A DNA stretch of 64,000 bases from a phage, in assembly GCA_024682255.1 (NCBI GenBank), contig GCA_024682255.1_4716.1; one strand, 5' to 3'. Of this stretch, positions 6,379-61,366 are shown piece by piece. A model generated the notes under the pieces. The model had not been told where the DNA came from, made no database searches, and was given only the letters and a program-made list of their open reading frames with translations. A program made the position numbers and the translations under genes. How positions within the stretch are numbered: the first letter of the stretch is position 1; each line of letters opens with the position of its first letter.

Positions 6379-6414
6379 ACCTCCTTCCCTAGCCATCAAG
6401 GCCGGGGAAGGAGG
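6379..6414. terminator. CT-rich/GA-rich hairpin between convergent genes (same stem class, different loop)
   Basis: CCTCCTTCCC-TAGCCATCAAGGCCG-GGGAAGGAGG; A8 tract upstream and TTATAGTTTATTTATT downstream. Confidence 0.5.
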
Positions 6415-6429
6415 ATTATAGTTTATTTA

Positions 6430-6819
6430 TTAACGCGTTGCGTTCTGGATGATTTCTTTTCCGATCTTAACCAAAGCGGGTATCTGCACAGCGGTTGCGC
6501 CTCGATGACGAAACGCGGTCGTTAACGCAGTATCGATACTCACCGCACGTCCATGAAGACGATCGAAATAGACTTGAGTGATTGCGGTAGCGTAATCCTT
6601 TCGCTGTTTCTTGGTTTGGCTCAACAGCGCCGCACTACGACTAACGATGAAGTAAGCGATTAAGAAGAACGCCGCTGACCGCGAACCAGGTAGAAAACCT
6701 TGTCGCTTAGGAAGCATCTCACAATCGCGAACAGAATTATCGTTCGCGAGCTCTTCCATGTCAACACGGCATAATTTTGCATAGGTGTGGAGATAGTGGG
6801 TAAAAGTTGAATTTAACAT
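6430..6819 (-). CDS. hypothetical protein
   Basis: 129-aa ORF with GAGGAAAG RBS before ATG; no motif recognised. Confidence 0.5.
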   Translation of the reverse strand: MLNSTFTHYLHTYAKLCRVDMEELANDNSVRDCEMLPKRQGFLPGSRSAAFFLIAYFIVSRSAALLSQTKKQRKDYATAITQVYFDRLHGRAVSIDTALTTAFRHRGATAVQIPALVKIGKEIIQNATR

Positions 6820-6924
6820 TTTCTTTCCTCGATTACAATGAGTTCAATGTATAGCTTAAACGTCACAGAACGACGTATAACGGTTTGTTTTAATTTCTAA
6901 GGGGTTTCCTTATCTACGATTGAA

Positions 6925-7287
6925 TTAAAGCGTTCTGAAGAGTTCTGTAGCGTTCTCGTCACGTAAACAGGCTTCGTTCAACAATTCAGCTAACAGCTTC
7001 GACCGAACTTCAACAAATGTCCTGAGGCGATGCTCCCATTCTAAACGGATAGTGTAAGTATTATCCAGGTTTTTGTAGTCAACGACAGATACCGAGCAGC
7101 GGGGTTCACGTTTGTTCACAGCATCCCAAACATCACGGATAACCGTCACGCCTTTCTTGGTACACGTAAACGTTAAAATAAAGCGATTATTCGCTGCTTC
7201 TTCACGGACATGACTAAATTCACTTCGTAACGATGAGACTTTGATAAGTCGGTCAATAGCTAACGATAAACCGATACGTTGTTGCAT
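6925..7287 (-). CDS. hypothetical protein
   Basis: 120-aa ORF with AGAGGGGA RBS; abuts the next gene. Confidence 0.5.
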   Translation of the reverse strand: MQQRIGLSLAIDRLIKVSSLRSEFSHVREEAANNRFILTFTCTKKGVTVIRDVWDAVNKREPRCSVSVVDYKNLDNTYTIRLEWEHRLRTFVEVRSKLLAELLNEACLRDENATELFRTL

Positions 7288-7288
7288 A

Positions 7289-7714
7289 TCAAATCCCCTC
7301 TTTCAGAATCTCATTAAGACCGTCAGTAATCCAGTCGAACTTCGTCTTAATCATGGCTGGGTTCAATCCATATACTTCCCACACAAGCTGGGGTTTATGT
7401 GTTCCATCGTCCAAACAAAGCACATCGATTGAGAGTACCATACCACCCGTCAATTTCATGTTCTCGCAACTACGAAGATATGCGGATTCTAGCAATACTT
7501 TCCCTAACGCAGTGCAAGCAAATGTTAACCGGGAAGAGTACAGGTACGATGACGTTTTACAGTAGGTTGCTGATATCGGTTGAATATGTTTGCGGAGTTT
7601 GGCGTCTTCACGTAAAAGCAATAACGTGTGATGTAACCGCGTATGCTCGGTAACCGATGAGCTATACTCACCGATACACTCTTCGGCGACTGATTTAGGC
7701 CATTTAATTTTCAT
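7289..7714 (-). CDS. hypothetical protein (paralog of 7730..8173)
   Basis: 141-aa ORF, GAGGA RBS; N-terminus MKIKWPKS and HHTLLLL resemble MEIKFCKS and QHTLERL of the neighbouring ORF. Confidence 0.5.
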   Translation of the reverse strand: MKIKWPKSVAEECIGEYSSSVTEHTRLHHTLLLLREDAKLRKHIQPISATYCKTSSYLYSSRLTFACTALGKVLLESAYLRSCENMKLTGGMVLSIDVLCLDDGTHKPQLVWEVYGLNPAMIKTKFDWITDGLNEILKEGI

Positions 7715-7729
7715 GTTCGATTCCTCGTA

Positions 7730-10166: not shown

Positions 10167-11093
10167 CTAAAAAGTTCCTCTGTTTCACGTTAATTAAACA
10201 ACGTATTGATTTCTGGTAACGATAACAATCCTAGTGATGTTATCAAAAAGGTAACGCTTACGCGTCGCGTTCATGATGCCATGCATCATGAAGGTAATAT
10301 AGCCGTGAAAGGATTTGTGTTACAGAAAGGGTTTTGTTGTTTTTAAGAAGAGATGGATTTAGAAGAGGTGTTGCAAGCAAGGAAGGTAAACGAGGATAGG
10401 TATTTTGATTTAAGTAAGTAAGATGTTATCTGTATTCGTTAAAAATGTATTGTCTAAGTTATCTTGTTTATCTTAGGTTATGTCTTATTGTTTAATCGTT
10501 TAATATTTTTATCTAAGTAGGTTTAACTCTATCTTGTTTGTATATTTAAATTAATTTAAAGTAGATCAATAAGCTTATCTTCAAAACAATGGATAACATG
10601 TGTTTACTACCTTAACGGTAACACATGTCATCTGTGCATTCACTCCGTTATCACTTCGTTACATGCTTATCAACGTTTTGTCTTCACAAAACGTTCAACT
10701 CAAAAAACCATTTGTGATACTCTTCTTCACGTTGTTCATCAGAGTATCTCGTCTATACTCATTGCATTCGTATACGACATAACCGTTATACGCTAACGCT
10801 ACGCTTATAGCTTGATAACTCTAAGGATAAAAACATAAACTCGCTTCGCTCGTTTAGTTTTTCTTTTTCTTAGAGTTATCCTGTTGCTCGTCTCTAAAGG
10901 ACTTCGCTCCTCCCCCGTCCCCCGAAGGGGCCGAGGTCGTGGAAATTTTACTTTCCAAATACATTTACAACATCTGTAAACTTTTACTCCAGGTACTTAA
11001 TCTTATCATTAGAAATTATAAAAGAGAAGAATAAACACAAACATAAACCTTCCTCCAACCCAACAGGGAAGGAGGAAGGGGGATTAATTAAAA
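10167..11093. other. long AT-rich non-coding region with reiterated TTATCT-type motifs and inverted repeats (regulatory hub, origin or ncRNA candidate)
   Basis: No ORF with RBS support in ~0.9 kb; repeated TTATCTTGTTT / TTATCTAAG motifs around 10.42-10.56 kb; 12-bp inverted repeat GATAACTCTAAG...CTTAGAGTTATC around 10.81-10.88 kb. Confidence 0.5.
11048..11079 (-). terminator. conserved hairpin element, AACCC-N4-GGGAA core (copy), downstream of 11094..11993
   Basis: CCTTCCTCCAACCCAACAGGGAAGGAGGAAGG; on minus strand followed by TTTATGTTTGTGTTTATT; identical 32-mer recurs at ~58629. Confidence 0.55.
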
Positions 11094-11993
11094 TTATACG
11101 GGAGCGTTAACGTTATAACCGAATACTGCTTTACCGTAGGTGTGAGTACCGTCAGCTAACGACAGCACCAGCACATTGCCGTACGTAGCGTTAACGCCCT
11201 TGTCGGTAGACTCGAGGGTATCACCGTTATAGACAAAGGTAGCTGTTTGCAGATTGGCTTTCAGTTCATTGATGATCTCATCACTTACACCGGTCTGCTC
11301 TTTGATCAGGGTGGTCAGGTTACCTGCCAGGCTTTCATCGATCTTGGTTTCGTTACTGGTAATCGCCTGTAAACCTACGCCGTAGATGCTGAAGTCTAAC
11401 GGATAGGTTAACAGACGCGCTGACGTTTTGGTACCATCGCCTTCATCAACGTAGGTTAAGTTACCCAGGTTGGTAACCTTGATGATGTTAGCCAGATCCA
11501 GCGTGGTGTTATAAACTTTAACTTGAACCGAGCCATACCACGCCAACGAATCTTCTTTGGCTTCCAGGGTGATCGTCTGGATACCATGCTGGTCGAAGGT
11601 AACCGGCGTAGCTAACGTTTCGGCTTTGATGTCTTTCGCTTTATCCAGGAACTTCTCACCGGAAGGCGTGATCATACCGTAGCGTTGAGCTACAAGGTCA
11701 ACCACGTCACCAATAGTGGTGTTCGCATTAACGTTAACACGTACAGCGATTTTCTGGAACCACTTAGCCAGATCCAGACGATGGTAGGTAACATCGCGTT
11801 CATTGAAGTAAGGGGTACCTTCACCTGGGCTAAGCGTTAAAGTTGCTTCTGGAGCAGAAGGATTCTTTTCTTTAAGAACGTATTTAAGGTCGGTGTATTT
11901 GAAGCTGGCACCAGTGTCGGCGTTGAGTTTGTTAATCTCATCAACGATAAGTTGCCAAGGTGTTTTTAAAGTAAGCGATACTTGAGCTGTCAT
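11094..11993 (-). CDS. putative virion structural protein, member of YYDR...LAWxGSV paralog family
   Basis: 299-aa ORF with AGAGG RBS; motifs TYHRLDL, AQRYGM, SLAWYGSVQV shared with 12135..12677, 23050..23955, 24872..25723, 25734..26681; monocistronic with hairpin terminator. Confidence 0.6.
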   Translation of the reverse strand: MTAQVSLTLKTPWQLIVDEINKLNADTGASFKYTDLKYVLKEKNPSAPEATLTLSPGEGTPYFNERDVTYHRLDLAKWFQKIAVRVNVNANTTIGDVVDLVAQRYGMITPSGEKFLDKAKDIKAETLATPVTFDQHGIQTITLEAKEDSLAWYGSVQVKVYNTTLDLANIIKVTNLGNLTYVDEGDGTKTSARLLTYPLDFSIYGVGLQAITSNETKIDESLAGNLTTLIKEQTGVSDEIINELKANLQTATFVYNGDTLESTDKGVNATYGNVLVLSLADGTHTYGKAVFGYNVNAPV

Positions 11994-12727: not shown

Positions 12728-12876
12728 TCTACAATTTGGTTGTAACAATCTGCGTGGTTGCACGCTTATCTTTCTCATTGAGCGCTTCGTATGAAGCGTG
12801 GTGTTGAAAGGGTTGTGGATCTCCTCAAGCGGCCAGGGACCCAGACCAACCCGAATAAACACGAACACCTGTTAAG

Positions 12877-12908
12877 CCCCTCCTCATCCGTTATTGGGTG
12901 GGGAGGGG
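12877..12908. terminator. C-rich/G-rich hairpin between convergent genes (variant of the conserved class)
   Basis: CCCCTCCTCATCCGTTATTGGGTGGGGAGGGG, followed by TCTTATACGTCTTTATACG. Confidence 0.45.
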
Positions 12909-12971
12909 TCTTATACGTCTTTATACGTTCCGTTCGTTCTGGAGCGTTTTAGGACGGTTTACGGCGGGGTT

Positions 12972-15795: not shown

Positions 15796-18390
15796 TTATA
15801 ACGTGACTGTACCTAATTTGGTTGTCTTATTGAGATTAATGACAGAGATCTGGGTATCGCTGGTCGTAATCGTTCCGATATTAACGCGCTGTCCTTTATC
15901 ATCTTCTTGCTTGTAGATGGTTAACTCCAGTTCTAACTGGTCGCCATTAGGAACAACGGAAACGTACCATGTTTTATTACCTGGTGAGCTATTATAGTCT
16001 TTTAGGTTATAATGGCCTTTAGGTAAGGTCATGACCTTACCGGCAAACAAGCAAGTGATGTCTTCGTTGATGTAGATATCGTAACCGGAAGCAGCAACGA
16101 CCGTAGAAACCATGTAGACATGTTTGACGGTACCTGCGAGGTATTCGGCTACGCTTGGCCCATATGCTCTGAATACCTGTCCGCCATTGGATAAACGGTA
16201 CGCTTCCCCAAGGTCAACGTACCCCAGACCCCATACCGGATGGACGTTGTAACGACGTCCGCTGCTGGCCAAATACTCATAAAGCTCATCTACCGATAAC
16301 CCAACCCACGCACCACTGGCGTTCTTAGCACCACGGAATTGAAAATCGTTTGCGTTTCCTGGAGTAGCAACGCGCACGGACATCGCCCCGGCGATTAACC
16401 AGCCATCAGCGCATTTACGATACCCTAATGGTCCCCACGCCCCCAGAGTGTTATCAATGTTATTGATTTGGTCCCGAGGCGTGTAAGTTACCGTTGTGAC
16501 GACCCCCGTTACGGTAATGTTCCCTTCCCGAGCGCTAGTCGTTACTTCAGACGTCATGATAGCCGCCTTCCTGGAGACAGGATCGTACACCGATATGAAC
16601 ATCAAGCAGGGGGCCCCTGTGGACGCTGGAGGAACCACGATAGAGCCGCGTATAACGGAGTATCTCTCAAGCTTCGGCGACGTGTAGGTATCCCAACAAA
16701 GTTTGGCCGCTCTGTCGAGTTCTGCCTGCGTGATGCTTATCGATGCCCCCTTTAAGGCTAACGTATCAGGGTCGACCTCAACCCTGCTGCTTAATCTCCC
16801 TTCCTGTAACCAGCTACCAGTCACTATCGTCTGGTCGTCGCTCATGTGAATTGTCGCGAAACGTTCGCTCACTGAACCGCCTACGTGGACGCGACTGGTT
16901 GGCGGGAATCCCGTCACATCGACCACGCTGTTCTTATAGCGATAACTCAAATCCCAATCAGTGGTTATTAACCGCTTTTCGAAATTGCTCTGACCCCCTG
17001 GGATGCGGGATAAGACATAGACCTTGTTCTTCGCCGTGAAGCCAACGAAGCCGTGTGGACCACAGGACCCAACAACGCGGTCCATGATGTTAATCCAGTT
17101 CCCCACCTCGTACGCGGATATTGGGGTGAGTTTCGCAAGTTCGTCGAAGACATTACCAGCGTAGTCACCAATGCGATACGATCGAACCATCGGCGAGGCC
17201 AGGTTATCATTCACACAGCTGGTAACCAGACCGTCCTCGCGAATGACCATGTTCCCGGTAAGGTTGCCCCCACCCCATGCCCAGAATCCGTCTTTATAAT
17301 CACGGTCACGAGTTGACATCGTACAAGGGCCACGAAAGGACACCGAACCATCGGAGTTCACTTGTAATGACGGCGTTCCAGCATTGGGACTTAATGTCCA
17401 TTGCTTCGTATCCAGGTTCAAATCGACGTACCAGATCGTTGTCCCCTGGTCGGCGATATTCACGGTACTGTTAGTGTACCATGCCGTCGTGCAGTAGATT
17501 CGCGCAATGTTACCTCTTACAACAGCGTAATTTCGAACACCCGCACGAATAGGGATAAACGTCGTTAATTGACTAGGGTACGCTGTATGGTTTAACACTT
17601 CCCAGAAAAGAATGTGGTCGAGGTTGGTTTTCGTCGTTCCCTCAAAAATCTTTCCACTAAACCCGGTTTCTTTGGTGAACTGTACAGCCGCACCATTTTT
17701 AATGTCCGATAACATACAGGTATGTACATCGAGCCCGTGTTTCCCTTCATATTCCCACCAGACTAACAGGTACACTTTGTTTTTGTAGACGAACGTACTA
17801 CAGCGCGCCATGCTGTTGGTAATACCCTCTACCGACCCGGTACACATAGCGGCGACATGCATCTCTACGTTGAATGTGCCGTTAGTCAGAACGATGTAGG
17901 GCTGTGTGTTCTCGTCGTTTGCGTCCATCGCGATACCCATCATCACGCCGTGGTTATGACACCAGACCGATTGTGGGATTTTAGGTAGTGCTGTAGGGTT
18001 GTACTGGCGACTGGTACCTATGGCGGTATCGAGCAACCCTTCACCATTGTTTTTACAGATAGCGTAATACACCCCGTTTTTCATGCTGTTGGATGCAGAG
18101 CGAAGGATGGAAACACTCCCGTCTGCTTCCTGACAGATTCCGTAGGTACGACGTTCGGTCATGGCTATCGCGCCATCAGCTGACCCTTCGATGGCGAGAG
18201 GGAAGTAACTTTGATCGCCAATTTGTTCGATATCGGTTACGTCAATATCAATGTACTTTTCCATCTCGGTGTTGAACTCTGCAGTGCTGTACGCGCCGAG
18301 ATCGCCAGCCTTTAACCCTGTTGGATTGCTTCTGCTAGCGATGCGCTCGGTAACACTGGTCACCAGTTCGCTAAATTTTTTCATTGCCAT
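15796..18390 (-). CDS. large tail-associated structural protein (putative fiber, spike or baseplate component)
   Basis: 864-aa ORF between two tail fiber genes; G/S/T/N-rich composition; no catalytic motif recognised. Confidence 0.5.
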   Translation of the reverse strand: MAMKKFSELVTSVTERIASRSNPTGLKAGDLGAYSTAEFNTEMEKYIDIDVTDIEQIGDQSYFPLAIEGSADGAIAMTERRTYGICQEADGSVSILRSASNSMKNGVYYAICKNNGEGLLDTAIGTSRQYNPTALPKIPQSVWCHNHGVMMGIAMDANDENTQPYIVLTNGTFNVEMHVAAMCTGSVEGITNSMARCSTFVYKNKVYLLVWWEYEGKHGLDVHTCMLSDIKNGAAVQFTKETGFSGKIFEGTTKTNLDHILFWEVLNHTAYPSQLTTFIPIRAGVRNYAVVRGNIARIYCTTAWYTNSTVNIADQGTTIWYVDLNLDTKQWTLSPNAGTPSLQVNSDGSVSFRGPCTMSTRDRDYKDGFWAWGGGNLTGNMVIREDGLVTSCVNDNLASPMVRSYRIGDYAGNVFDELAKLTPISAYEVGNWINIMDRVVGSCGPHGFVGFTAKNKVYVLSRIPGGQSNFEKRLITTDWDLSYRYKNSVVDVTGFPPTSRVHVGGSVSERFATIHMSDDQTIVTGSWLQEGRLSSRVEVDPDTLALKGASISITQAELDRAAKLCWDTYTSPKLERYSVIRGSIVVPPASTGAPCLMFISVYDPVSRKAAIMTSEVTTSAREGNITVTGVVTTVTYTPRDQINNIDNTLGAWGPLGYRKCADGWLIAGAMSVRVATPGNANDFQFRGAKNASGAWVGLSVDELYEYLASSGRRYNVHPVWGLGYVDLGEAYRLSNGGQVFRAYGPSVAEYLAGTVKHVYMVSTVVAASGYDIYINEDITCLFAGKVMTLPKGHYNLKDYNSSPGNKTWYVSVVPNGDQLELELTIYKQEDDKGQRVNIGTITTSDTQISVINLNKTTKLGTVTL

Positions 18391-21717: not shown

Positions 21718-22998
21718 ATGTATACATTGGTAAAAACTTACGGGTTACCCGTAGGTTCTGGCACGGCCTGGACAGCGCTTGAGGCGGGTGAAAGTGTCCT
21801 GAGTACGTTGTTCTCAACGTATCAAAAACTCAAGATCCAGGTCCATGAAAGCTACGCTGACCAGCAACAAGTTATTGATCTGTACACATTTCAATCCGAG
21901 CTTCAAAACAGCAGTGATACGCTCAATGCGTGGTTGAAAGCGAAATCGGATGCACATACCAACCTTCGAGGACAGCCTGGTGAGCTGTCGATTAAAACCC
22001 ACAAGCTTTATTGTCATGACGCTATTACGGTAGGCTTTCTCCCTAAAGTCGGTAATAGCGGTTATCATCCGAGCAATGCGATCCCTGAGTCGGAACGCAC
22101 TGATATCCTGTTGACGAAAGCGAATACGAATTACGAAAATATCGGCAAACACTGCTTGTTCACCGTAGGCGGTTATGTTCATCCTCACGTCTACGGTAAA
22201 GACGTTGGTGTCTATATCCTGGGTGGGTTCGAGACAGCACAGCGTAGCCAAGAAAACGATATCGGCATGATTGATTTTAGCCGTATCGGGAGTTTGGAAA
22301 TTCATGCTATCACAGAAGAGATGATTGCTGATTCCACGAAGCTCTTGCCGTATAAGGACGAGATGTACTTGCGGTTACCGCGCAAGGTCGCCGAAGATGA
22401 AACCGTTGCGCTGGTGTTCGGGGGATATTTACATCTTCTTGACGATTGTTACACGATCGTTAGCGACACGACAGCAAAAATAAACTGCATTAACATGTTT
22501 CTCTATGAAAGATACTTCCGTTCCCGCAAATACCTTGATCTAACATCTCTTGGTATTCTGTTGAACGAAGAAGACCCACAGTCCGACATTGTTGCCAATC
22601 GTTTATTGTCGGATAAAGCATTAAAAGCGTGGGTGACGCATCCTTGCAGTTTCTGGGTGTATATCAAAGCAACATCGATTCGGGTTACGCAAGAACCTTT
22701 ACCACGAAGTGGTGTACCAGGACAGTATTTCTTAGGTAAGAAACCGGAAGGATTGATTCGGGCCGATCTTGGTGAGTTACCGGCTTACGTGCAGACCTAT
22801 GAAAAACCGTTATGGGTACTTCACTCGCGCTGGGGACTTCGTAAGAACATGTTGTTTGAAAATACGTTGTACAAACATACCCGCGTTAAGCGGCTTAACG
22901 ATACGCCTTATCTTCACCAGGTCTGGTTGGAAACGCATGCGACGTTGCAGACAGTACACAAGCTCGAATTGATCGATTCCAGTCAGAAAAACAAATAA
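21718..22998 (+). CDS. hypothetical protein
   Basis: 426-aa ORF with AAGGGGG RBS; convergent with downstream minus genes; followed by conserved hairpin. Confidence 0.55.
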   Translation: MYTLVKTYGLPVGSGTAWTALEAGESVLSTLFSTYQKLKIQVHESYADQQQVIDLYTFQSELQNSSDTLNAWLKAKSDAHTNLRGQPGELSIKTHKLYCHDAITVGFLPKVGNSGYHPSNAIPESERTDILLTKANTNYENIGKHCLFTVGGYVHPHVYGKDVGVYILGGFETAQRSQENDIGMIDFSRIGSLEIHAITEEMIADSTKLLPYKDEMYLRLPRKVAEDETVALVFGGYLHLLDDCYTIVSDTTAKINCINMFLYERYFRSRKYLDLTSLGILLNEEDPQSDIVANRLLSDKALKAWVTHPCSFWVYIKATSIRVTQEPLPRSGVPGQYFLGKKPEGLIRADLGELPAYVQTYEKPLWVLHSRWGLRKNMLFENTLYKHTRVKRLNDTPYLHQVWLETHATLQTVHKLELIDSSQKNK

Positions 22999-23008
22999 CC
23001 AAACATAA

Positions 23009-23040
23009 CCCTCCTCCAACCCAACAGGGAAGGAGGAGGG
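23009..23040. terminator. conserved hairpin element (AACCC-N4-GGGAA core) between convergent genes
   Basis: CCCTCCTCCAACCCAACAGGGAAGGAGGAGGG flanked by AAACATAA upstream and AATATG downstream. Confidence 0.55.
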
Positions 23041-23049
23041 AATATGCTG

Positions 23050-23955
23050 TTATGCTACATATAGCGTTAGATAACCATCGATGAGCGTATTCATCACACT
23101 GAGTTGGAGTACGACAGCTTTACTAACATCTGTGCGTACACCGAACGGTAGTGTTTTGAATTGCTCTGGATCGGCTATTACTCTCGCATTCTGCAAGTTG
23201 AGTGGTCCAGGCATTGCTGACAGTACCCAGCGATCGTTGACCGTAAGACCGTCGATCTCTTCAGAGAGACCCAATTGCAGCATGTTCATTTCTGCAATTA
23301 GTGCCTCCGATTGCGTATCACCTGAGGTTAACGTATACCCATCGGTAAGTGATGCCAGAACACCAGCAGATACGAACCAGTTGTACGAAACAATAGCGCC
23401 AGGGAGTTTATCACTATCTCGATCGATGAGATAATTCAACCCAGCCAACATATTGTTGCGAATGAGGTTGTTGAGGTCATTATGTCCTGAGGTTAACTCA
23501 ATGAGTAATTGACCAACCCATACTTGGTTACCGGGTTTAGGTGTTATCACAACCTGTATCGGTGACTTGGACTTATCCAGATCCGCGTCGACAATCTCGG
23601 TTTTGTTGAGAAGGATACCGTACGTCGATGCTAAGACAGGTAGGATCTCAGAGACCTTGGTTAGCGCATCTAAGGTTTCGATCTCGATGGGCCAGTGGTG
23701 CTGTCCGCCAGACCAAGTACCTAGTTTACCAAGATCGATACGGTTATAATAGATGTCGACAGAGTTCACCAGCCCTGAACCCGGTTGGGGATGCACGGTT
23801 AACTTGCTGTTACGCTTGTACCCGGTGCTTTCAGAAGCCTCACCGATAACCAGTTTATCCAGCGTTACGCCTCGAGCATCGAAATCGCTATGCTTTCGAA
23901 TCAGCCGAAAGAGGATTTCTTTCGATTCTAACCCCAGGATTTCACTGTACTCCAT
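23050..23955 (-). CDS. putative structural protein, YYDR paralog family member
   Basis: 301 aa; IYYNRIDLG, ASTYGIL, NQVWVGQLLIEL. Confidence 0.55.
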   Translation of the reverse strand: MEYSEILGLESKEILFRLIRKHSDFDARGVTLDKLVIGEASESTGYKRNSKLTVHPQPGSGLVNSVDIYYNRIDLGKLGTWSGGQHHWPIEIETLDALTKVSEILPVLASTYGILLNKTEIVDADLDKSKSPIQVVITPKPGNQVWVGQLLIELTSGHNDLNNLIRNNMLAGLNYLIDRDSDKLPGAIVSYNWFVSAGVLASLTDGYTLTSGDTQSEALIAEMNMLQLGLSEEIDGLTVNDRWVLSAMPGPLNLQNARVIADPEQFKTLPFGVRTDVSKAVVLQLSVMNTLIDGYLTLYVA

Positions 23956-32077: not shown

Positions 32078-32109
32078 ACGGATGTAAAAAAAAAATAACA
32101 CATAGTTAA

Positions 32110-41694: not shown

Positions 41695-41733
41695 TATGAT
41701 TACCTCTTTGCAAGTATCGAAAGGATTGAGTCG

Positions 41734-43344: not shown

Positions 43345-43371
43345 ACGCAAAAAAAAAAAGATTGTACGGTT

Positions 43372-43403
43372 CCCTCCTCCAACCCGTAAGGGAAGGAGGA
43401 GGG
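43372..43403. terminator. conserved hairpin element (AACCC-GTAA-GGGAA) between convergent genes
   Basis: CCCTCCTCCAACCCGTAAGGGAAGGAGGAGGG; A11 tract upstream (T11 on minus strand); GTTATG downstream. Confidence 0.55.
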
Positions 43404-43419
43404 GTTATGACCGCTTTGA

Positions 43420-43746
43420 TTAACTTATTGTCATGAATTCATTAGGTGAAAATTTCCAGCCGTTCTCAGTGAGAAGCGTGTTGAGTTTCGCTGCAACGAT
43501 AAGCCATGCGTGCATGGCTGTTACATCGTATTGGCGGTTCACTCGACGTTGGTTTTCGATATTGATTTGCTCCTGTTCAGTGATGTTTGGATAAAGTGCG
43601 ATAGCGCTAGGTTTACCCAGCGCGCTAGTCATCACCGCCGTACATTCACTGATAATGTTGTTTAAGTGGTAGTTATACACCGTTCCACGCATGACGCGAT
43701 GACGGCATTCGATAATAGCGTCGTAAATGATTTCTCGAGTAATCAT
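43420..43746 (-). CDS. hypothetical protein
   Basis: 108-aa ORF. Confidence 0.45.
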   Translation of the reverse strand: MITREIIYDAIIECRHRVMRGTVYNYHLNNIISECTAVMTSALGKPSAIALYPNITEQEQINIENQRRVNRQYDVTAMHAWLIVAAKLNTLLTENGWKFSPNEFMTIS

Positions 43747-44869: not shown

Positions 44870-45772
44870 TTACTTAGTCTTCGAGTTACAAGGACTGACA
44901 TGTTGTTGTACTCGTTGAATTGTATCGTAGTACGGGTTAGATTGGTTGAACATGTTGTTGTGTGGATGATAGCCGTATGGTGCATTTTGCCTTGTTGATG
45001 AGAAACCTTGTTGAGAAGGACGATTTGAATTAACCGCGAGTACGTAGTAAACCAAATTTTGACGGTCGAACGTTCCTTCGTTTTTGAAGGTGTCGGCGTA
45101 GGCTTTTACCGCTGGAGCGAGCCTATCACCATCAGCGGTAATAATTGTACCGTCTGGGTAAACTTCACGAACGACGCACCATGTTCCGATAAGAACGTCT
45201 TTGGGTGGCGTATTGCCGTATCCGGTTGTAACGGTAAGGTAAGTATCGAACCCTTCAGAACAACAAGGATGACGATAGATAGGTCCTGTCATTTCCGTTC
45301 TATCGGTATCATCGCATTTCTCTATTGAGAACGATGATGTGTCGGTTTTGAAATTGTCAAATTCTTTCTTTAAGTCGATTACAGGTTCTTTCGTATAGTA
45401 CTTCTTGATTGCTTTGACGTAAAGATCAGGAACGGTTGTCAGCATTCCGTTATACCTGATTCTCAGGTTTTCGAGTAATCCAAAGATGCTCGCGCATGCC
45501 TGTTCGCGAGGTTTTGTAAGATAAGAGATCCCCCCAGGAACGCTGGGATCTTTGAGAAAGAAGATTGCGTTATTGTCGTTGTGTGACACATTAAAGAAAA
45601 CGATTGATTCGATATATACGGAGCATAGGCTATCGTTGGCGTCGTCAGATAACACCCAGATGCACTCATCGGTCGTCTTGTTTAAAAGTTCTGTTTTGTC
45701 CACCAAACGTTGTTTCATTGCGAGGAAATGTGCCTGTTGTTCAGCGGATAATTCACGATAAATAGTGGTCAT
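44870..45772 (-). CDS. hypothetical protein (paralog of 45858..46632)
   Basis: 300 aa with AAGGAG RBS; shared segment PIYRHPCCSEGFDTYLTVTTG...REVYPDGTIIT vs PIYIHPECHTTYDRYLTITGG...REIYPDGRIVT. Confidence 0.5.
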   Translation of the reverse strand: MTTIYRELSAEQQAHFLAMKQRLVDKTELLNKTTDECIWVLSDDANDSLCSVYIESIVFFNVSHNDNNAIFFLKDPSVPGGISYLTKPREQACASIFGLLENLRIRYNGMLTTVPDLYVKAIKKYYTKEPVIDLKKEFDNFKTDTSSFSIEKCDDTDRTEMTGPIYRHPCCSEGFDTYLTVTTGYGNTPPKDVLIGTWCVVREVYPDGTIITADGDRLAPAVKAYADTFKNEGTFDRQNLVYYVLAVNSNRPSQQGFSSTRQNAPYGYHPHNNMFNQSNPYYDTIQRVQQHVSPCNSKTK

Positions 45773-46632: not shown

Positions 46633-46735
46633 TTTGTATCCTCGGTTGTTAAGAGAAATTTACAATGATAACAGTAACCGTTGTTATCACCTAGGTAATG
46701 TAGTCGCGAAATAAACTGGATTAGACAGCATAGAA

Positions 46736-46767
46736 CCCTCTCCCAACCCGTAAGGGAAGGGAGAGGG
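46736..46767 (-). terminator. conserved hairpin element (AACCC-GTAA-GGGAA)
   Basis: CCCTCTCCCAACCCGTAAGGGAAGGGAGAGGG flanked by GCATAGAA and AATATAT; 16-nt motif TCACCTAGGTAATGTA lies ~35 nt away. Confidence 0.55.
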
Positions 46768-46773
46768 AATATA

Positions 46774-47406
46774 TCACCAATGATCGAAGGAACCAGGAGT
46801 GTTACGAACGATCTCAACTTGGAAGGTTATTGGTGTTGATGGCAATGAAACATATTCGCGTTGCGATAGCGGGACGTTGTCTTCTCGCTCATCGATGCGA
46901 GCGGAACCTGTCAGAAATTGGAACATAGCGACTTGAAGCTCATCGGTGAAACGGAGGTACTCACCGATGTGTGGTGTTGCATCATATCGAATAAGTACGT
47001 TGCCAAACCGTCGTGCGATATTTGGAGTATCTGTGAACGAAACAGGGAAATCCAAAGTCATTCCCATCGTTTCACCCGGCTTCATTTTCCGAATCGACGC
47101 AATTGGCACGTCGAAGATATTCCATTCTTCTTTCATCGTGTCTGGAAACACACCGCGATACAAGATGGTCTTTTGATGACGATGAACGGGTTGTAAACGG
47201 TCAACCAATATTTTCAAAGGTTTAAGTTCTTCAGCCAACTCATAATCTGCTTGGATGTTCCACTTTGCCGCAAGTTCCATTAGGTTGGGATACGCGCTAT
47301 ATTTATTGACGATAGTCCAGTTAACATTACGCAAATCAATAGGAAGGAATTTGATAATTTCCTTGTTGAATATCCATTGGTTTAATTTCTTAATCTCCGA
47401 AAGCAT
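46774..47406 (-). CDS. hypothetical protein
   Basis: Start re-assigned to the first ATG after the upstream stop (MLSEIKK); ORF-track start overlapped the upstream gene by ~170 nt; weak RBS. Confidence 0.4.
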   Translation of the reverse strand: MLSEIKKLNQWIFNKEIIKFLPIDLRNVNWTIVNKYSAYPNLMELAAKWNIQADYELAEELKPLKILVDRLQPVHRHQKTILYRGVFPDTMKEEWNIFDVPIASIRKMKPGETMGMTLDFPVSFTDTPNIARRFGNVLIRYDATPHIGEYLRFTDELQVAMFQFLTGSARIDEREDNVPLSQREYVSLPSTPITFQVEIVRNTPGSFDHW

Positions 47407-52639: not shown

Positions 52640-52691
52640 CGCAGATTCCTGTTTGAAAGATAAGATATCACATGATGGTCGACAGCATAAA

Positions 52692-52711
52692 GCCCACCCC
52701 GAAGGGCGGGC
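52692..52711 (-). terminator. GC-rich hairpin downstream of 52728..56114
   Basis: GCCCACCCCGAAGGGCGGGC; on minus strand followed by TTTATGCTGTC. Confidence 0.45.
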
Positions 52712-52727
52712 TGTTTATGCTTACGGA

Positions 52728-55700
52728 TTACTTGTAGGCACCGCAATGGGCTTTGATGAGGAAAAGCACTGCTTGCATCGGTTTATTGAACTGTTGCCAT
52801 AACGTCAATGCAGGATGGAACAACCAATCTTCCAGGCCGAGAACAATACCGTAGTTAACGACATTATTAACGTCGTTCTCAATGTTGAGTTCGCTGTCCA
52901 GGAATTTATCGATTGAACGCAGGGTCTGCATGGCATTGTCAGCAATAAGCCAAGCTTCATGCGCTTCACGAGCCGCACGCAGCACTGCTTCCAGTTCGCT
53001 GATAGTAGCTACCGGTAATTCCTCACTGGTAAGGTCGTCAGAAACCGTAAACTGGCGATTGATACCGGTGTAGATCCACTGCATCAGTTTCGCTGCTTCC
53101 TCGTTCGGGTTGTTACGCGTTGTCGCATAAGTCGCGCTCACCTTCACGATGTGCGTTTCACCAAGATACGCTTTGGAACCAACGCCTTTACGATCGCTGT
53201 TTTTCCACGGTTGTACGGTAGCGACCATGAGCTTATCCCATTTCTGAATAGGAATACGCTTCAGACCAACAACCGATCCAGCGGATGTTTCGGACTGGTT
53301 GCTCTTCCGCACTTCGCTGAGTTCACGATCGATAGCAACGATTAATTCGCGTGTCATGTTACCAAGCATTTTGATTTCACCCAACGCAGCGATGAGCTTC
53401 TTCACGTCGGTAACAGGTTCACCACCGATGGTAAGATGACGGATGAAACGTTTCAGAATAATCCGTTCTGCTGCTGGGTTACCACGACGCGCTTTAGCCA
53501 ATGCTTGCTGCGTTTCGGCGAACAGCTTATCCCATGGAGCCGTAGCAGCAGTATAGTAACGATGATTGGTTTCGATCCAATTACCGATACGGTTGACCGC
53601 ACTCTTAACGGTATCCATGAATCCTTCCATCGCAATTTCGGTAGCTTCGACGTTACCCTGGAAGTTATCAGGACCGATCTCACGTGCCGCTACCAGAATA
53701 CCTTCCACAGCACTCACCGCATGGCGACCGATAGCCAGATTTCGCTGTGCTTCTTCAGCACGCTCAACGAATTCCACCACCGCAGGATCATCAACGATTT
53801 CCGCCTCAGCAACAACACGTGTACCGGCATCGCCTTCCAGCGTCTCGATCGTTACAACAGGATCGTTTTCACCAGCAACATCCTGGTACTCTTCCTGTTT
53901 AAGATCACCGTTATCTGCCGCAGCGATAGCGTTCATTATGCGGATGGTGACCTCACCAAGTTCTTGCGAAACGAATCCATAAACGGTGCAAGCAGTCGTT
54001 GCGAAGTTCATCAATGTGCGCGTACGCTGCGTGATGTAACGTGCGCCGGATTCGTTTTCCAGTTTATCGAGATCCCGGATTAACTGCTCGGCTGTTTCTT
54101 GAAGCTGTGTTACCGCCTTCAAGAGATCTTCGTCGAACAGTTTCTTCGATGCATCAACTAACATATCAGCATTGACGTTGGATGGTACCGTATCGCCTTG
54201 CTGTTTCATCTCGCTCAGCTCATCGCGGAACTTACGGATACCTTCTAAAGCGTCGTCAACGGAATATCCGAATGCCTTAACGCCCGCCATTCCGAGAGCT
54301 GCTTTCATATCGCCAGGATGTTGAACTTGCTCGCCTTCCTTGCTGTTCTTTAACTCATCGAAATATTGACGTGATGCGTCCGCAATACGCTTGCTGTCTT
54401 TTACTGCGTTAACGATCTTATCAACCGATTTCGAATCGTTTGCAAGTAACGTGTCAAGCTTGTTCCATGCAACATCAACTTTCTTCCCGTTGTTAGCCTC
54501 GCCCGGCGGTGGAAGCAGCTTCATCACTGGTGTTGTGCGTTGTTCTTTGGTGAGCTTACCAGCTTTCTCTTCGATTTTCTTTTTATTAACACCGAAAAGT
54601 TTTCTTAGGCGCGCCACGATGGCTTTTAAGAACTTCACAACCGCTTCGTAAACCGATTTCAGGATCTGTTTAAAGCGACCGGGTTTCTTGTCACCGTCTT
54701 CCAGATTAAGATCGCTGTTCAGTGCGACATCAAGCTGTTTGTACGATTCCATGATGTATTCGTCTTTGATTTCAGGACGAATCTCGAAGCTTTCCATCGG
54801 ACCTTCAGCCGGACGGAATTCCATTTTCAGTTCGCCTTGCAGGGTAGGGTCGACAATGGCGATCGCTTCACCCTGACCATCAGCGTTAAAGCGTTCAGCG
54901 TAACGAGTACGGCGAACAATAACACTCTTATCCCCATCAAGACGACGTACCACCATGGTACCAGGAATGTATGGTTGTTCTGTTTCAATGACGGTTACAT
55001 CTGCTTCACCTTCGCCGAGAATAACAGATGCACGCTGTTCAACAACAGGAACATCTAATACACCACGGGCTTCCAGCTCTTGATGAATTTCGAACGACTC
55101 TTGTTTCAGATCTTCATCTTCTTCGTTTTCGTCGTCTTCATCATCGTCACCTTTGGTGTTTTCATCACCTTTGGTGGCTGTGGTGTCGGTAGCATCAGCA
55201 TCAGCGTCGGTGTTGGTAGCGTCTTCGGTCGCAGGTTCGGTGGTGTTGTCCTCCGTGGACGACCCGTCAGTGTTATCGACGTCAACATCACCTTGCAGTT
55301 CTGTTTCCTGAGCAACTGCTTCGGCTTTCTGCTCGCCGGTATTACCGTCATTAGCGTCGACAACAGGTTGTTCGTCAGCGACGGTATCTTCAACCTTTTC
55401 TACTTTCTCCACGACACGTTTAATCACGGTGACTTTGATGGGTTCTTCCGTTGTTTTGGTTTCTGGCGTCACCTCGGCTGCCGCAGCCGCTGTTTCAGCA
55501 ACAGGTTCTGCTTTTTCCGGTTCGACGACATTACCTTTAACGCCTTCGGTGGTTTCTGCAGGTTGCGCTGCCTGTTCGATTTGTGCCGGATTGGTTGGAT
55601 CGATGGCGTTAGCTGCATCCTGAATCTTGTTCTTCAGGTTGTCGCGGTCGGCGTTAACGGTCGGGTCATTGGTCACTTTCGGTGCCGGTGTTTCGGTCGG

Positions 55701-56114
55701 TGCGTTTGCCGGATACGGGTTCTTCGGCTCTTCGCCAGGTGCGGTCGGTACCGCGATCAGAACGAACGGTTGAACATCGTTACCGTCTTCCATGGTCACG
55801 CCGCCGTTGCTCGGTGTGAAACGAATTCGCAAGCTACCATCAATAGGACGGGTCACAATAACAGCACGTACGACATCTTCACCGTTTTCATCCGTGCTAC
55901 GAATCACACGAACAGCGTCATCAACAGTAGCCCCTTCCTCGAGCGTATCTGATTCGATCGTCGCTTCGATGCTGTCTGGCCGTGCCGCTGTAGGTAATGC
56001 GATCACTTGCTCTTCTTTATCAGTAGAAAGCGTTGCTTTGACTTCGATAGGTGTATCGCCGCTTTCCAGGTTAAGATGCGACTTACGCATCAGATCAGCT
56101 AACGATTTTTTCAT
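52728..56114 (-). CDS. very large virion-type protein with extended acidic low-complexity region (candidate internal head or ejection protein)
   Basis: 1128 aa with AAGAGGA RBS; residues ~130-330 are E/T/D/A/P-rich (e.g. TEDNTTEPATEDATNTDADADATDTTATKGDENTKGDDDEDDENEEDEDLKQ). Confidence 0.6.
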   Translation of the reverse strand: MKKSLADLMRKSHLNLESGDTPIEVKATLSTDKEEQVIALPTAARPDSIEATIESDTLEEGATVDDAVRVIRSTDENGEDVVRAVIVTRPIDGSLRIRFTPSNGGVTMEDGNDVQPFVLIAVPTAPGEEPKNPYPANAPTETPAPKVTNDPTVNADRDNLKNKIQDAANAIDPTNPAQIEQAAQPAETTEGVKGNVVEPEKAEPVAETAAAAAEVTPETKTTEEPIKVTVIKRVVEKVEKVEDTVADEQPVVDANDGNTGEQKAEAVAQETELQGDVDVDNTDGSSTEDNTTEPATEDATNTDADADATDTTATKGDENTKGDDDEDDENEEDEDLKQESFEIHQELEARGVLDVPVVEQRASVILGEGEADVTVIETEQPYIPGTMVVRRLDGDKSVIVRRTRYAERFNADGQGEAIAIVDPTLQGELKMEFRPAEGPMESFEIRPEIKDEYIMESYKQLDVALNSDLNLEDGDKKPGRFKQILKSVYEAVVKFLKAIVARLRKLFGVNKKKIEEKAGKLTKEQRTTPVMKLLPPPGEANNGKKVDVAWNKLDTLLANDSKSVDKIVNAVKDSKRIADASRQYFDELKNSKEGEQVQHPGDMKAALGMAGVKAFGYSVDDALEGIRKFRDELSEMKQQGDTVPSNVNADMLVDASKKLFDEDLLKAVTQLQETAEQLIRDLDKLENESGARYITQRTRTLMNFATTACTVYGFVSQELGEVTIRIMNAIAAADNGDLKQEEYQDVAGENDPVVTIETLEGDAGTRVVAEAEIVDDPAVVEFVERAEEAQRNLAIGRHAVSAVEGILVAAREIGPDNFQGNVEATEIAMEGFMDTVKSAVNRIGNWIETNHRYYTAATAPWDKLFAETQQALAKARRGNPAAERIILKRFIRHLTIGGEPVTDVKKLIAALGEIKMLGNMTRELIVAIDRELSEVRKSNQSETSAGSVVGLKRIPIQKWDKLMVATVQPWKNSDRKGVGSKAYLGETHIVKVSATYATTRNNPNEEAAKLMQWIYTGINRQFTVSDDLTSEELPVATISELEAVLRAAREAHEAWLIADNAMQTLRSIDKFLDSELNIENDVNNVVNYGIVLGLEDWLFHPALTLWQQFNKPMQAVLFLIKAHCGAYK

Positions 56115-58521: not shown

Positions 58522-58628
58522 TTGGGACTCCTACGTAGGAAAATCTTGGCGGGTGATCATGTCCGCCATTTACCTTCTGAACCGTTGATTCAGAAGTCAA
58601 AAGATAACCGGATACCAACGCCATAAAA

Positions 58629-58660
58629 CCTTCCTCCAACCCAACAGGGAAGGAGGAAGG
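58629..58660 (-). terminator. conserved hairpin element (identical 32-mer to the copy at ~11048)
   Basis: CCTTCCTCCAACCCAACAGGGAAGGAGGAAGG flanked by GCCATAAAA and GATATGG; lies between paralog members 3 and 2. Confidence 0.55.
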
Positions 58661-58670
58661 GATATGGTGA

Positions 58671-59960
58671 TTATGCTTTTTCGGTTACAGCATCGAAATA
58701 TTTCGCTGCGGCAAATACAGCATCTGCATATTGACGGTTAGCAACACGGAGAATCTTAGCTGCTAATACCGCGCTCAATCGCGCCATTTCAGAAATGGCG
58801 CTTATATAAGGGCGAACGGTTTCACGATCTGCTTCCGGTAGATTGTCGAGCATACCGTCCCATTTAGTTTTAATTTTCATACCGTTTAGTTTAGCGGTAC
58901 GTTCGACAGTACTCGTTAAACTTTCTGTCTGGCGAAAATACGCGGGGTCAACGACACGAAACGCGTTAAGATACGAAGTCAGTGCGGCTTTCAATTCGTC
59001 GTCGTTATTGAAAATGTTCGCGTTTTCGATACTACCGGTCGCGGTTTCTTCAACTTCGATCTGAATATTCTTCACGAGCGCGCAGGCCTTAATGGTATCT
59101 TTCTCAGCCAAAAGAGCGTCAAGACCTTTAACAACATATCGTTTCCCACCGCTTTCTGGTATTTTGAGTCCTTTTAACGCAGGCTTGATGGCGTAAATAT
59201 AATCGTCCAGAATATCGGCAAGTGTCGTCAAATCGGTTAGTTTATTAACTTTCTTGTTAATGTCGTCAGTTTGGAGTAGTAAAAAAGCGGATGCTTGTGT
59301 GGATGCCGCTAACTGCTCAATATGTTTACGAACCTCCAACGCGTTAACCATTTTTGCGTTAGGGAACATGCTAATCATATTCCCGGTCGGTTTATTTAGT
59401 TGTTTGATGTGACGCTCGCCTTTATTTACAGCGGTTGCAACATCGGTAATTTTTTTATACGCTACCGCAAGGTTTTTGAAAAGCAGCTGAATCAGTTTAC
59501 ATAGCTGTTCAGCCATGTTCGCAATGATTACCCAAACTGCGTATAACGCTTGCGCAGCGCGTTCTTTAAAGCCTTCCAGCACAATAGCTTGCCCTTCCAC
59601 CAAACGATCGTCAGCTTGGAACATGTCTTCATCAGACATCCCCAGGTTAGCTGCTGACGTCGAAGCAATCTGACGGATAAGGGCGACGTCGCTCGCACGT
59701 GCTTCCGAGATCGTTGGTGCGATCATGTACGCTGTATCTTCCAGCGTTGCTGAGGTACGCACTGCAATTTCAGCCAGTTCGCTGGATTCATCGATCGTCT
59801 CGTCGGTGCGTCGAATCACCAACTCAACTTCGTCCTCTTCGATTTCCGCGTTAGGATCATTTTGCTCCGTCGGAATTGCCGCAAGAAGATCTTCGGCGCT
59901 GAGCAATGCGAGTTCGAATGCGTTTTTATTGACGTTATCGAAAAGAGAGATGCGGGCCAT
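58671..59960 (-). CDS. member 3 of tandem paralog array
   Basis: 429 aa with AAGGAAC RBS; APTISEARASDVALIRQIASTSAANLGM...EGFKERAAQALYAVWVII closely parallels member 4. Confidence 0.6.
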   Translation of the reverse strand: MARISLFDNVNKNAFELALLSAEDLLAAIPTEQNDPNAEIEEDEVELVIRRTDETIDESSELAEIAVRTSATLEDTAYMIAPTISEARASDVALIRQIASTSAANLGMSDEDMFQADDRLVEGQAIVLEGFKERAAQALYAVWVIIANMAEQLCKLIQLLFKNLAVAYKKITDVATAVNKGERHIKQLNKPTGNMISMFPNAKMVNALEVRKHIEQLAASTQASAFLLLQTDDINKKVNKLTDLTTLADILDDYIYAIKPALKGLKIPESGGKRYVVKGLDALLAEKDTIKACALVKNIQIEVEETATGSIENANIFNNDDELKAALTSYLNAFRVVDPAYFRQTESLTSTVERTAKLNGMKIKTKWDGMLDNLPEADRETVRPYISAISEMARLSAVLAAKILRVANRQYADAVFAAAKYFDAVTEKA

Positions 59961-59969
59961 GTTAGTTCC

Positions 59970-61287
59970 TTAACCTTTGGTATAAGCTTTAACGAGAGTG
60001 TTGATAAATGAAGTCAGTGCGCGAAGATACTGGTAAGCGAACTGGTTTTGAATACGGTTCTCTTTACCGCAAAGCAGAATCGCGCGCTTAACGAGCTTAG
60101 GATAGATCTCGATGTACGGTTGGTAGCTCGCATCAAAATTCTGCTCGTTGAAGCGTTTCATGGTGATTTCCTGGATGCGCTCCATGGTGCGAATTTTATT
60201 GCGAGAGAACATCTCAGAGAAAGCACGTCCGCGTTTTGTTACCATCAACAGATCTTTCGCGAACGTCAGTTGTCGAACGCTACGCAAATCGTCAGGTGTT
60301 GGTAGGACGTACGTTTCTGGATCGCTATCCCATTCAACATCTTCAACGACAATATCCAAGTCGAGGTAACGTTTAACCGCATCGATGATGTTGTCTTTTG
60401 ATGCGTCGAATTCTTTCAAGAAGACTGCGCCGTTGATGTAACGAATGCGTTTTCCGGAAACCGTTGGGGTGATAACGTCAGTACCTTCCACGGAACCGCG
60501 ATTTTCCAGTGTCGATTTGACAGCGTGCAAGAAAGACAGATAATCAACAGGAAGTTTTTCAACCTTATCTAAATGGAAGTCGATGATGTTTAATCCTAAC
60601 CCATCAATAACCGAATGACCATCCGATTTAAGGAACATCTGATTGAAGGTATCGATGTTGCTTTTCAGCGTGTCTACACCACCGACTTTGTTACGGTTAG
60701 GGAAAAGTGTCCGCCACTCCGCTTTAAACGCAACTTCTTTATTTTCCTCGTATTTGCCTTTAGGCATTTGTTCGAGGGCTGCAACGGCTTTCTGAAAATT
60801 GCGCGTCTCGTCGTAAACAAGACGGGTCAGCTTCTCGAAGGCTGCTGCCAAGGTCAGGGCAATATCAACAATGATATCCCAGATCTTTTTCATGGCTTTT
60901 ACAACGGTGTCCTTAAACCCTTCAACAACCAAAGCTTCTCCAACCTCAACACGATCGGTTGGCGTCAGCAATGCTTCGGAGGGTAGACCCAGAGCAATCG
61001 ACGCGGATTCTTGCACGTTACGAACTAATGCAACGTCACTGTAGTTAGCCGATTCGATAGTCGGAGCAACATCAAAACTGATTTCCCGTAATGCGGCAAC
61101 AGCAGGGAAAGCACGATCAAGTGCATCTTCATGTTCGTCGATTGTCGCCAAACGTAATTCAACGCCATCGGCATCGATGACATCGACTGTAGGCTCCACA
61201 GCAAGCGCCTCAGCAACAATAGGATCTTTTTCAAACGCCTCAAGGCTAATATCGCCTTGGGTCGCAAATAACGGTATGTGTACCATG
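59970..61287 (-). CDS. member 4 of tandem paralog array
   Basis: Start re-assigned to ATG (MVHIPLF) with GGAGA RBS (ORF track began at TTG 61310); APTIESANYSDVALVRNVQESASIALGL...EGFKDTVVKAMKKIWDII. Confidence 0.6.
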
Positions 61288-61334
61288 TGTTGTCTCCAGT
61301 AATGATTCAAAAGATAAACCTGGACGGCATAGAA

Positions 61335-61366
61335 CCCTCTCCCAACCCGTCAGGGAAGGGAGAGGG
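61335..61366 (-). terminator. conserved hairpin element (AACCC-GTCA-GGGAA)
   Basis: CCCTCTCCCAACCCGTCAGGGAAGGGAGAGGG flanked by GCATAGAA and AATATGTC; lies between paralog members 5 and 4. Confidence 0.55.

Follow-up and report, generated by a model that had tools for sequence, protein, structure and literature searches.

The window, a stretch of 64,000 nucleotides of phage DNA (NCBI GenBank assembly GCA_024682255.1, contig GCA_024682255.1_4716.1), carries a family of near-identical G+C-rich hairpins at its gene boundaries, which raises the question of whether these elements end transcription, start it, process RNA or act in the DNA itself. A first-pass annotation had listed nine of them, at 6379, 11048, 23009, 32110, 38573, 43372, 46736, 58629 and 61335, and had offered bidirectional terminators, RNA processing sites or combined terminator/late-promoter units as explanations. 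Our analysis indicates that they are very probably intrinsic terminators, acting in one or both directions, of a Goslar-like chimallivirus, and that they are most probably used by the multisubunit RNA polymerases of the phage itself.

Hairpins at gene ends in a Goslar-like chimallivirus

Judged by its similarity to known genomes, the window phage is a Goslar-like chimallivirus, i.e. a nucleus-forming jumbo phage of E. coli (Chimalliviridae). Along its entire length, a 12-kb piece of the window shares 97% identity with Escherichia phage vB_EcoM_Goslar (MK327938), and the window is colinear with Goslar 4.9-66.4 kb throughout, except for a few diverged or inserted stretches. The homologue of gp123, a subunit of the phiKZ non-virion RNA polymerase (nvRNAP), lies at Goslar 39951-41621 and corresponds to the window open reading frame (ORF) 35092..36891(-); together with the identity to Goslar, it marks this genome as that of a chimallivirus encoding its own multisubunit RNA polymerases. 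A search of IMG/VR with the capsid protein matched only Goslar-like contigs that are 99% identical. We used the whole Goslar genome and its 247 coding sequences as a survey set, taking hairpins of -15 kcal/mol or stronger.

All nine listed sites hold strong hairpins and all lie outside genes, each 6-32 nt past the stop of the gene, or genes, running towards it (99 nt in the case of the capsid gene). Four of them (6379, 23009, 32110 and 43372) stand between convergent genes and the other five between tandem minus-strand genes. Two related hairpins, at 12873-12913 and 52684-52721, had been overlooked. Goslar has 72 intergenic hairpin sites, and 16 of its 19 convergent junctions contain one; at a 17th junction the hairpin (134585) overlaps the ends of the coding sequences. 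Goslar hairpins stand a short way behind the upstream stop codon, whereas anything from 0 to about 800 nt separates them from the next start. The placement is after genes, and bidirectional between convergent ones. The Goslar record itself labels as 'putative transcriptional terminator' the orthologues of window sites 6379, 12873, 23009 and 52684; those of the other seven listed sites have no terminator annotation.

The core AACCC-N4-GGGAA, which had been described as common to all nine sites, has seven matches in the window, where 0.08 would be expected by chance, plus one copy with N5 at 32120. Six of the seven N4 matches and the N5 match belong to listed sites. We discarded the seventh N4 match (21570, minus strand) as a chance occurrence, as it is inside a coding sequence and has neither the C/T nor the G/A arm. 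The shared core consequently stands for seven sites, one of them with the longer loop, and fails for 6379 and 38573, which are divergent relatives: 38573 has the altered core AACCC-TTAC-GGGCT, and 6379 belongs to a second subfamily with the core TAGCC-NTCA-AGGCC, present in three copies in Goslar. A stricter pattern of arms plus core, searched on both strands, recovers eight of the nine sites (11048, 23009, 32110, 38573, 43370, 46736, 58629 and 61335). The copies at 11048 and 58629 are identical over 32 nt, and those at 46736 and 61335 differ in the loop only, as had been noticed before. Among the 72 Goslar sites, 16 are copies with the AACCC/GGGAA core (AA-core copies). The elements are listed in Table 1.

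Table 1. Putative terminator hairpins of the window, with neighbouring genes, flanks and Goslar orthologues.
Element	Hairpin	Strand	Type and sequence	Gene context	Flanks and tails	Goslar counterpart
6376..6419		.	subfamily B, CCTCCTTCCC-TAGCC-ATCA-AGGCC-GGGGAAGGAGG; -31 kcal/mol on either strand	between convergent genes 5270..6358(+) and 6430..6819(-)	TATAG instead of TATG on both flanks	11186-11220, annotated 'putative transcriptional terminator'; paralogues 84363, 200229
11042..11083	11048-11079	-	AA-core	14 nt past stop of gene 11094..11993(-)	minus TTTATGTTTG, TATG 11045-11042; plus side without TATG	
12873..12913		.	divergent family member, CCCCTCCTC-ATCC-GTTATT-GGGT-GGGGAGGGG	between convergent genes ending 12677(+) and 12972(-)		17603-17637, annotated terminator
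23004..23046	23009-23040	both	AA-core, bidirectional; z about -6.7 on each strand	convergent genes 21718..22998(+) and 23050..23955(-)	TATG 23043-23046 (+) and 23007-23004 (-)	27746-27777, annotated terminator
32101..32150	32110-32144	both	AA-core, bidirectional, 5-nt loop	between convergent genes 29168..32077(+) and 32162..32437(-)	TATG on each strand	
38565..38612		-	post-capsid	99 nt past major capsid gene 38702..40924(-)	TTTCTATGCCGTT	
43370..43409	43372-43403	.	AA-core	convergent genes 41650..43344(+) and 43420..43746(-)	plus GTTATGACCG; minus without TATG but with a T11 run starting 13 nt beyond stem	
46729..46769	46736-46767	-	AA-core	6 nt past stop of gene 46774..47406(-)	minus TTCTATGCTGT	
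52684..52721		.	phiKZ-type, AGCATAAA-CAGCCCGCCC-TTCG-GGGTGGGC-TTTATGCT	6 nt past stop of gene 52728..56114(-)		55080-55101, annotated terminator
58622..58666	58629-58660	-	AA-core	10 nt past stop of gene 58671..59960(-)	minus TTTTATGGCG; plus side also TATG, but TATA in Goslar	
61328..61372	61335-61366	-	AA-core	22 nt past stop of gene 61389..62717(-)	minus TTCTATGCCGT; plus side also TATG	

Structure and covariation of the stems

The window hairpins are G+C-rich stem-loops whose 5' arm is rich in C/T and whose 3' arm is rich in G/A. Their folding energies range from -24 to -32 kcal/mol (z-scores against shuffled sequences, -4.9 to -7.2). In the AA-core copies an inner stem of 3 bp is separated from an outer stem of 9 bp by an invariant 2x2 internal loop, A·A on one strand and U·U on the other. 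A gap-free alignment of the 16 distinct AA-core copies from Goslar and the window shows that 5 of the 12 pairs have changed on both sides and none on one side only; 99% of the cells are paired, and the covariation score exceeds those of all 500 shuffles and all slid registers. Every change in the stem retains the pyrimidine 5' arm and the purine 3' arm. When ten hairpins of equal length were compared between the window and Goslar orthologues, all substitutions fell in the loop and none in the stems. The copy at 38573 folds on the sense (minus) strand into an uninterrupted 15-bp stem containing G·U pairs (-30.6 kcal/mol), against -18.5 kcal/mol on the plus strand. Because these G·U pairs work on the sense strand only, selection appears to act on RNA rather than on duplex DNA.

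The covarying outer stems and the excess conservation of the core that the first-pass annotation had reported were both recovered. The unpaired A's flanking the inner stem are constant in 16 Goslar and 7 window copies, while the loop between them varies (GTAA, AACA, GTGA, GTCA, AGCA, ATCA, GATGA). Homogenisation between copies cannot explain the invariant A's, since it would have homogenised the loops as well, and the A's look like the product of selection on sequence. Of the 16 Goslar copies, 14 have these A's on the plus strand, among them 9 of the 10 at convergent sites. Other Goslar terminators combine different cores with the same tail described below, so the AA-core type is not needed for termination generally.

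The loops also provide an observation of a different kind. Window positions 23027-23030 and 58647-58650 read AACA where the orthologous Goslar positions, 27764-27767 and 61027-61030, read GTAA; the stems of these hairpins are the same in window and Goslar, and the flanks almost so. In both phages, AACA also forms the loop of the 11048 copy. This block swap suggests very short sequence transfer between dispersed copies.

An Rfam scan of the whole window gave no matches at gathering thresholds, and a scan of 1-20 kb with generic terminator and promoter consensus patterns left the family members there unflagged, with counts near the shuffle expectation. Scanning IMG/VR for CCAACCC-N4-GGGAAGG yielded mostly single chance matches plus Goslar, and no diverged relatives suitable for covariation. 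More than 20 loci on AT-rich IMG/VR contigs do carry hairpins of the form aaaaaCCCC-CCAACCC-NAAA-GGGAAGG-GGGGaaaa, with the same tandem A·A (U·U) mismatch (L016, L018, L043, L046, L047, L049, L051, L059, L079, L101-L103, L107, L109, L110, L113, L114, L116, L119 and L123; L016 comes from a 187-kb myovirus-like contig encoding a tail sheath). In these a T-tract follows on the other strand, and there is no sign that the contigs are chimalliviruses.

A sequence-specific tail that follows the direction of transcription

The CATA/TATG flanks noted earlier proved to be real: seven of the nine listed sites have TATG 1-6 nt past the stem on the minus strand, and six have it on the plus strand. A tail of the form YTTATKYYGT stands right 3' of the stem, 6379 being without it. 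When 54 Goslar tails were aligned on TATG, the consensus was W-T-TATG-Y-Y-G-T, placed between the purine-rich end of the stem and T-rich sequence and beginning 1-4 nt past the G+C stem. Of 116 strand-specific intergenic hairpins in Goslar, 53 have TATG in the tail window, against 4-15 for unrelated permutations of the same four bases; among hairpins within coding sequences the figure is 28 of 374. The U run of about 5-8 that directly follows the hairpin of a canonical rho-independent terminator is not the rule here, as T runs of at least 5 are found in only 11 of the 116 Goslar tails, and the window tails consist of 2-4 T followed by ATG. Goslar contains 58 copies of TATGYYGT, 22 of them in the intergenic 7% of the genome. 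Since 18 of these 22 are directly behind a hairpin, TATGYYGT is not a free-standing signal.

In order to relate the tail to transcription, we classed each hairpin strand by whether transcription arrives at it (an upstream co-oriented gene) and by whether a co-oriented gene lies downstream. TATG tails are present on 28 of 42 convergent strands, where transcription arrives and there is no gene to drive, and on 24 of 47 tandem sense strands, where there are both. On tandem antisense strands, which have neither, the figure is 8/47, and on divergent strands, which have a gene to drive and no arriving transcription, it is 0/8. TATG therefore tracks arriving polymerases rather than genes to be expressed.

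At four tandem Goslar sites the annotated start of the next gene (gp47, gp111, gp167 and gp183) is the ATG of the tail itself. A transcript begun at the G of that ATG could not encode the gene, and read-through is implied. We considered whether the GGAGG of the 3' arm and the ATG of the tail might serve as ribosome-binding site and start codon, and rejected this: the same tail is present at convergent sites, and the ORF that would begin in this way at window 46732 has only 14 codons. The coincidence of tail ATGs with gene starts is judged incidental.

Comparison with phiKZ, other chimalliviruses and bacteria

In phiKZ, 61 terminators identified from RNA 3' ends by ONT-cappable-seq share the motif 5'-BCCYCCCCHWWDGGGRRGGBYTTATKYYGT-3' (Putzeys et al. 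2024, PMC10914365), and the ARNold analysis of the same authors classed the motif elements as intrinsic terminators. Phage 201phi2-1 has 59 similar terminators (motif A) and 15 bidirectional sites (PMC11512511). These phages and the window phage belong to the same virus family and have their own RNA polymerases, and in all of them the elements are intergenic and placed after genes, with a pyrimidine-rich 5' arm, a purine-rich 3' arm and the tail TTAT(G)YYGT directly past the stem. Bidirectional copies between convergent genes, with CATAA…TTATG on the two flanks, are likewise common to both. The differences are in the stem, which is continuous and of 6-7 bp in phiKZ but longer and interrupted (3 bp, 2x2 loop, 9 bp) in the main window subfamily, and in the copies, which are much more alike in the window, some being identical over 32 nt. 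The only match to the 30-nt phiKZ consensus within three mismatches in the window is 52682-52711(-), at site 52684.

The same GGCATAA-hairpin-TTATGCC palindromes are present in phiKZ 100-150 kb and in the first 50 kb (1-50 kb) of Erwinia phage RAY, and the first 50 kb of SPN3US have ordinary T-tract terminators. Twelve further chimalliviruses were compared by the strongest hairpin that follows their major capsid gene. The tail TTATGCCGY/TTATGCTGT was found in Xoo-sp14, RSF1, pEa_SNUABM_48, Eowyn, RP12, Ea35-70 and PhiPA3; phiKZ (TTATGTTGT) and Goslar bring the set sharing this tail type, TTATGCCGT, to nine genera. The hairpins of these nine post-capsid terminators are unrelated in sequence. 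In part of the family, therefore, the tail is an ancient element defined by its own sequence and not tied to that of the hairpin.

Bacterial rho-independent terminators resemble the window elements in having a G+C-rich hairpin right past the stop codon, with pairing kept by compensatory change, and in bacterial bidirectional terminators, too, one palindrome serves both strands at convergent pairs. They differ in that the elements of the window and Goslar have the sequence-specific TTATGYYGT instead of a long U-tract, and arms that are strictly homopyrimidine and homopurine; moreover, the polymerase would presumably be the sigma-independent enzyme of the phage, working inside the phage nucleus.

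Other features of the window

An AT-rich motif, A(A/G)GTAATATAGCCGTGAAA, recurs in divergent intergenic regions of Goslar (2529-2678, 113788, 142745-142952, 172899-173152 and 226597-226729) and is distinct from the hairpin family. The window has an exact copy at 10292-10310 (+) and a copy with three mismatches at 46693-46711 (+), a short way upstream of hairpin 46736. The motif is probably the early promoter of the window phage, that of the virion RNA polymerase. Between the exact copy and terminator 11048 lie about 740 bp of AT-rich DNA (10310-11048) with no ORF above 60 aa; the equivalent Goslar segment, 14971-15826, is unannotated. This region could be a unit for a plus-strand non-coding RNA or small peptides, in which case 11048 would be a convergent site.

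Two stretches of the window are absent from Goslar. In the first (44846-46627, about 1.7 kb) the paralogous genes 44870..45772 and 45858..~46630 replace Goslar gp47, and in the second (46772-47424, about 0.65 kb) a gene of 210 aa, 46774..47406, separates terminator 46736 from the end of the gp48 homologue. The idea that the hairpin repeats served as insertion breakpoints was discarded, as the insertions are not bracketed by two copies and the 0.65-kb gene lies between a stop codon and a single terminator. At 16116-18051 and 690-1258 the DNA is too diverged to align with Goslar, with both flanks 92-96% identical; the former lies within the large ORF 15796..18390(-) and may be a variable segment related to host range.

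The Goslar GenBank record begins inside an AA-core terminator copy (Goslar 1-25 and 237244-237307, our loci L001 and L005). Its last ~55 nt equal its first ~55 nt, which looks like an assembly overlap and not like a biological terminal repeat.

Discussion

The first observation of this hairpin family was real and well described, and of the explanations attached to it the terminator is the right one while the promoter is not supported. The idea of bidirectional terminators read by a phage RNA polymerase gains from the Goslar-like identity of the phage, its gp123 homologue and the phiKZ-like tail. The class has already been published for phiKZ and 201phi2-1, and the window family is its Goslar-lineage version and largely ordinary. 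The unit consists of two parts, a G+C-rich hairpin, in which the 5' arm is all pyrimidine and the 3' arm all purine, and a short sequence-specific tail, (A/T)-T-TATG-Y-Y-G-T. As the arms are a near-perfect inverted repeat, transcripts of either strand can form the same hairpin. Between convergent genes, with the tail on both sides (CATAA…TTATG), a single element would stop both polymerases, and between tandem genes the tail would act mainly on the sense side, where it is mostly found. RNA release would take place in or just after UUAU, a stretch giving a weak A/U hybrid; the U|G (pyrimidine-then-G) step is similar to the general pause signal at which multisubunit polymerases halt, and forward movement would be opposed by the G+C-rich GCCG that comes next. 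Acting together, weak hybrid, pause step and GCCG would replace the bacterial U-tract. The AACCC-N4-GGGAA subfamily is an extended version preferred at convergent junctions. Some downstream genes start a few nucleotides from the tail, so termination must be partial at some tandem sites.

Several points weigh against this interpretation. Termination is deduced here from homology and position, and we found no study of Goslar transcript ends in the literature; the 3'-end mapping in phiKZ alone cannot tell true termination from RNA trimmed back as far as a stable hairpin. The literal phiKZ consensus is not matched by the AA-core copies, because their stem is longer and interrupted. TATG is missing where transcription arrives at 6379 (both strands) and at 43372 (minus strand). 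Five of the twelve post-capsid terminators (Machina, pVp-JHP1101, PCH45, SPN3US and 2050HW) have T-tracts, so the TATG tail is not required by this polymerase family in general. Finally, a simple terminator model leaves the invariant unpaired AA/AA unexplained.

The last point and the deep conservation of the tail admit a bolder, if unlikely, extension, namely that TTATGYYGT is a termination code private to the phage polymerase, reusing the core of the late promoter, and that the A·A/U·U loop may bind a phage factor. The promoter pocket with which nvRNAP reads TATG may, speculatively, also act in elongation. The TATG past the hairpin would then be held by the beta-lobe pocket of gp123, or by the U|G pause, over the weak UUAU hybrid, and a factor bound to the loop would set termination efficiency or mark mRNA 3' ends, for example for handling at the phage nucleus. 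This is opposed by the published structure, which is reported to have an incomplete TATG pocket when the complex is transcribing (PMC12809450), and several chimalliviruses terminate with ordinary T-tracts.

A role in RNA processing or stability, which we hold to be rather improbable, would have polymerases read through, with the hairpins setting the mature 3' ends by blocking 3'-5' exonucleases or with the single-stranded UUAUG beside the stem serving as an endonuclease site. The position after stop codons, the strand-linked tails and the covariation at the RNA level fit it too, and in elements with both flanks CAUAA can pair with UUAUG, so that the 3' end is buried in a helix. Frequent read-through is implied by the downstream genes that begin inside the tail, and published 3'-end maps do not tell termination from trimming. 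However, few tandem sites (8/47) have the CATAA partner upstream, so helix extension is not generally selected. The 9-nt tail is conserved in phages of Pseudomonas, Xanthomonas, Ralstonia, Erwinia, Klebsiella and E. coli, a breadth that points to conserved phage machinery and not to differing host nucleases, and the ARNold analysis in phiKZ identified its motif elements as intrinsic terminators (PMC10914365).

Somewhat less probable still is a cassette of terminator and late promoter, in which the hairpin stops transcription and nvRNAP re-initiates at the G of TATG, producing either the next gene's transcript or, at convergent sites, an antisense RNA. The first-pass annotation had named TATG as the late-promoter core of phiKZ-like phages, and for phiKZ correctly: all four bases are essential, with G as +1 and no conservation further downstream (Yakunina et al. 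2015, PMC4666361; PMC7598289), and gp123, whose homologue is encoded in the window, binds TATG sequence-specifically (PMC12809450). These four bases recur in the tail, on the strand that is non-template for the travelling polymerase. A gene does follow the sense-strand TATG at tandem sites, what turns TATG into a promoter is unsolved, and abundant antisense RNAs have been reported for phiKZ. A late promoter, nevertheless, should have TATG upstream of and directed towards a late gene, and the tails are commonest at convergent junctions, which have nothing to drive, and absent from divergent ones; these orientation statistics fit termination rather than initiation. A transcript beginning at the tail G could not encode gp47, gp111, gp167 or gp183. 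In addition, the terminator tail conserves YYGT, unlike the phiKZ late promoters, and its intergenic copies are almost solely behind hairpins, whereas the reference promoter p119L (…GCTATATTGCTATGTAGACAG…) has an AT-rich and hairpin-free upstream region. The tight spacing of 1-4 nt from the stem also suits a release site more than a promoter.

Least of all do we favour an element acting as DNA (a palindromic protein-binding or cruciform site, or a dispersed repeat for recombination and the shuffling of gene cassettes, like the promoter-stem-loop repeats of T4-type phages), a very improbable reading to which the near-identity of dispersed copies, the loop switch at two orthologous sites with its look of transfer between copies, and the 1.7-kb and 0.65-kb insertions adjoining hairpin 46736 lend some colour, but under which compensatory changes would not keep pairing instead of sequence, the strand-asymmetric G·U copy at 38573, which makes sense only in RNA, would have no meaning, and the strict association with stop codons and transcription direction would go unexplained.

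To our knowledge, termination by the sigma-independent RNA polymerases of nucleus-forming jumbo phages is essentially unstudied. The sufficiency of the four-base TATG as a late promoter is an acknowledged puzzle, and the conserved internal loop and the deeply conserved tail that contains this promoter core are the only parts of the element that might repay experiments. Terminator finders that require a U-tract will miss most of these sites. As a compact and portable element, the terminator lends itself to termination assays in vitro, to the annotation of transcription units and to the engineering of Goslar, a main model of the phage nucleus. For the family, the finding means that a chimallivirus of E. 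coli shares with phiKZ a stop signal made of a hairpin and TTATGYYGT, the tail of which has been kept across nine genera while the hairpins have not.

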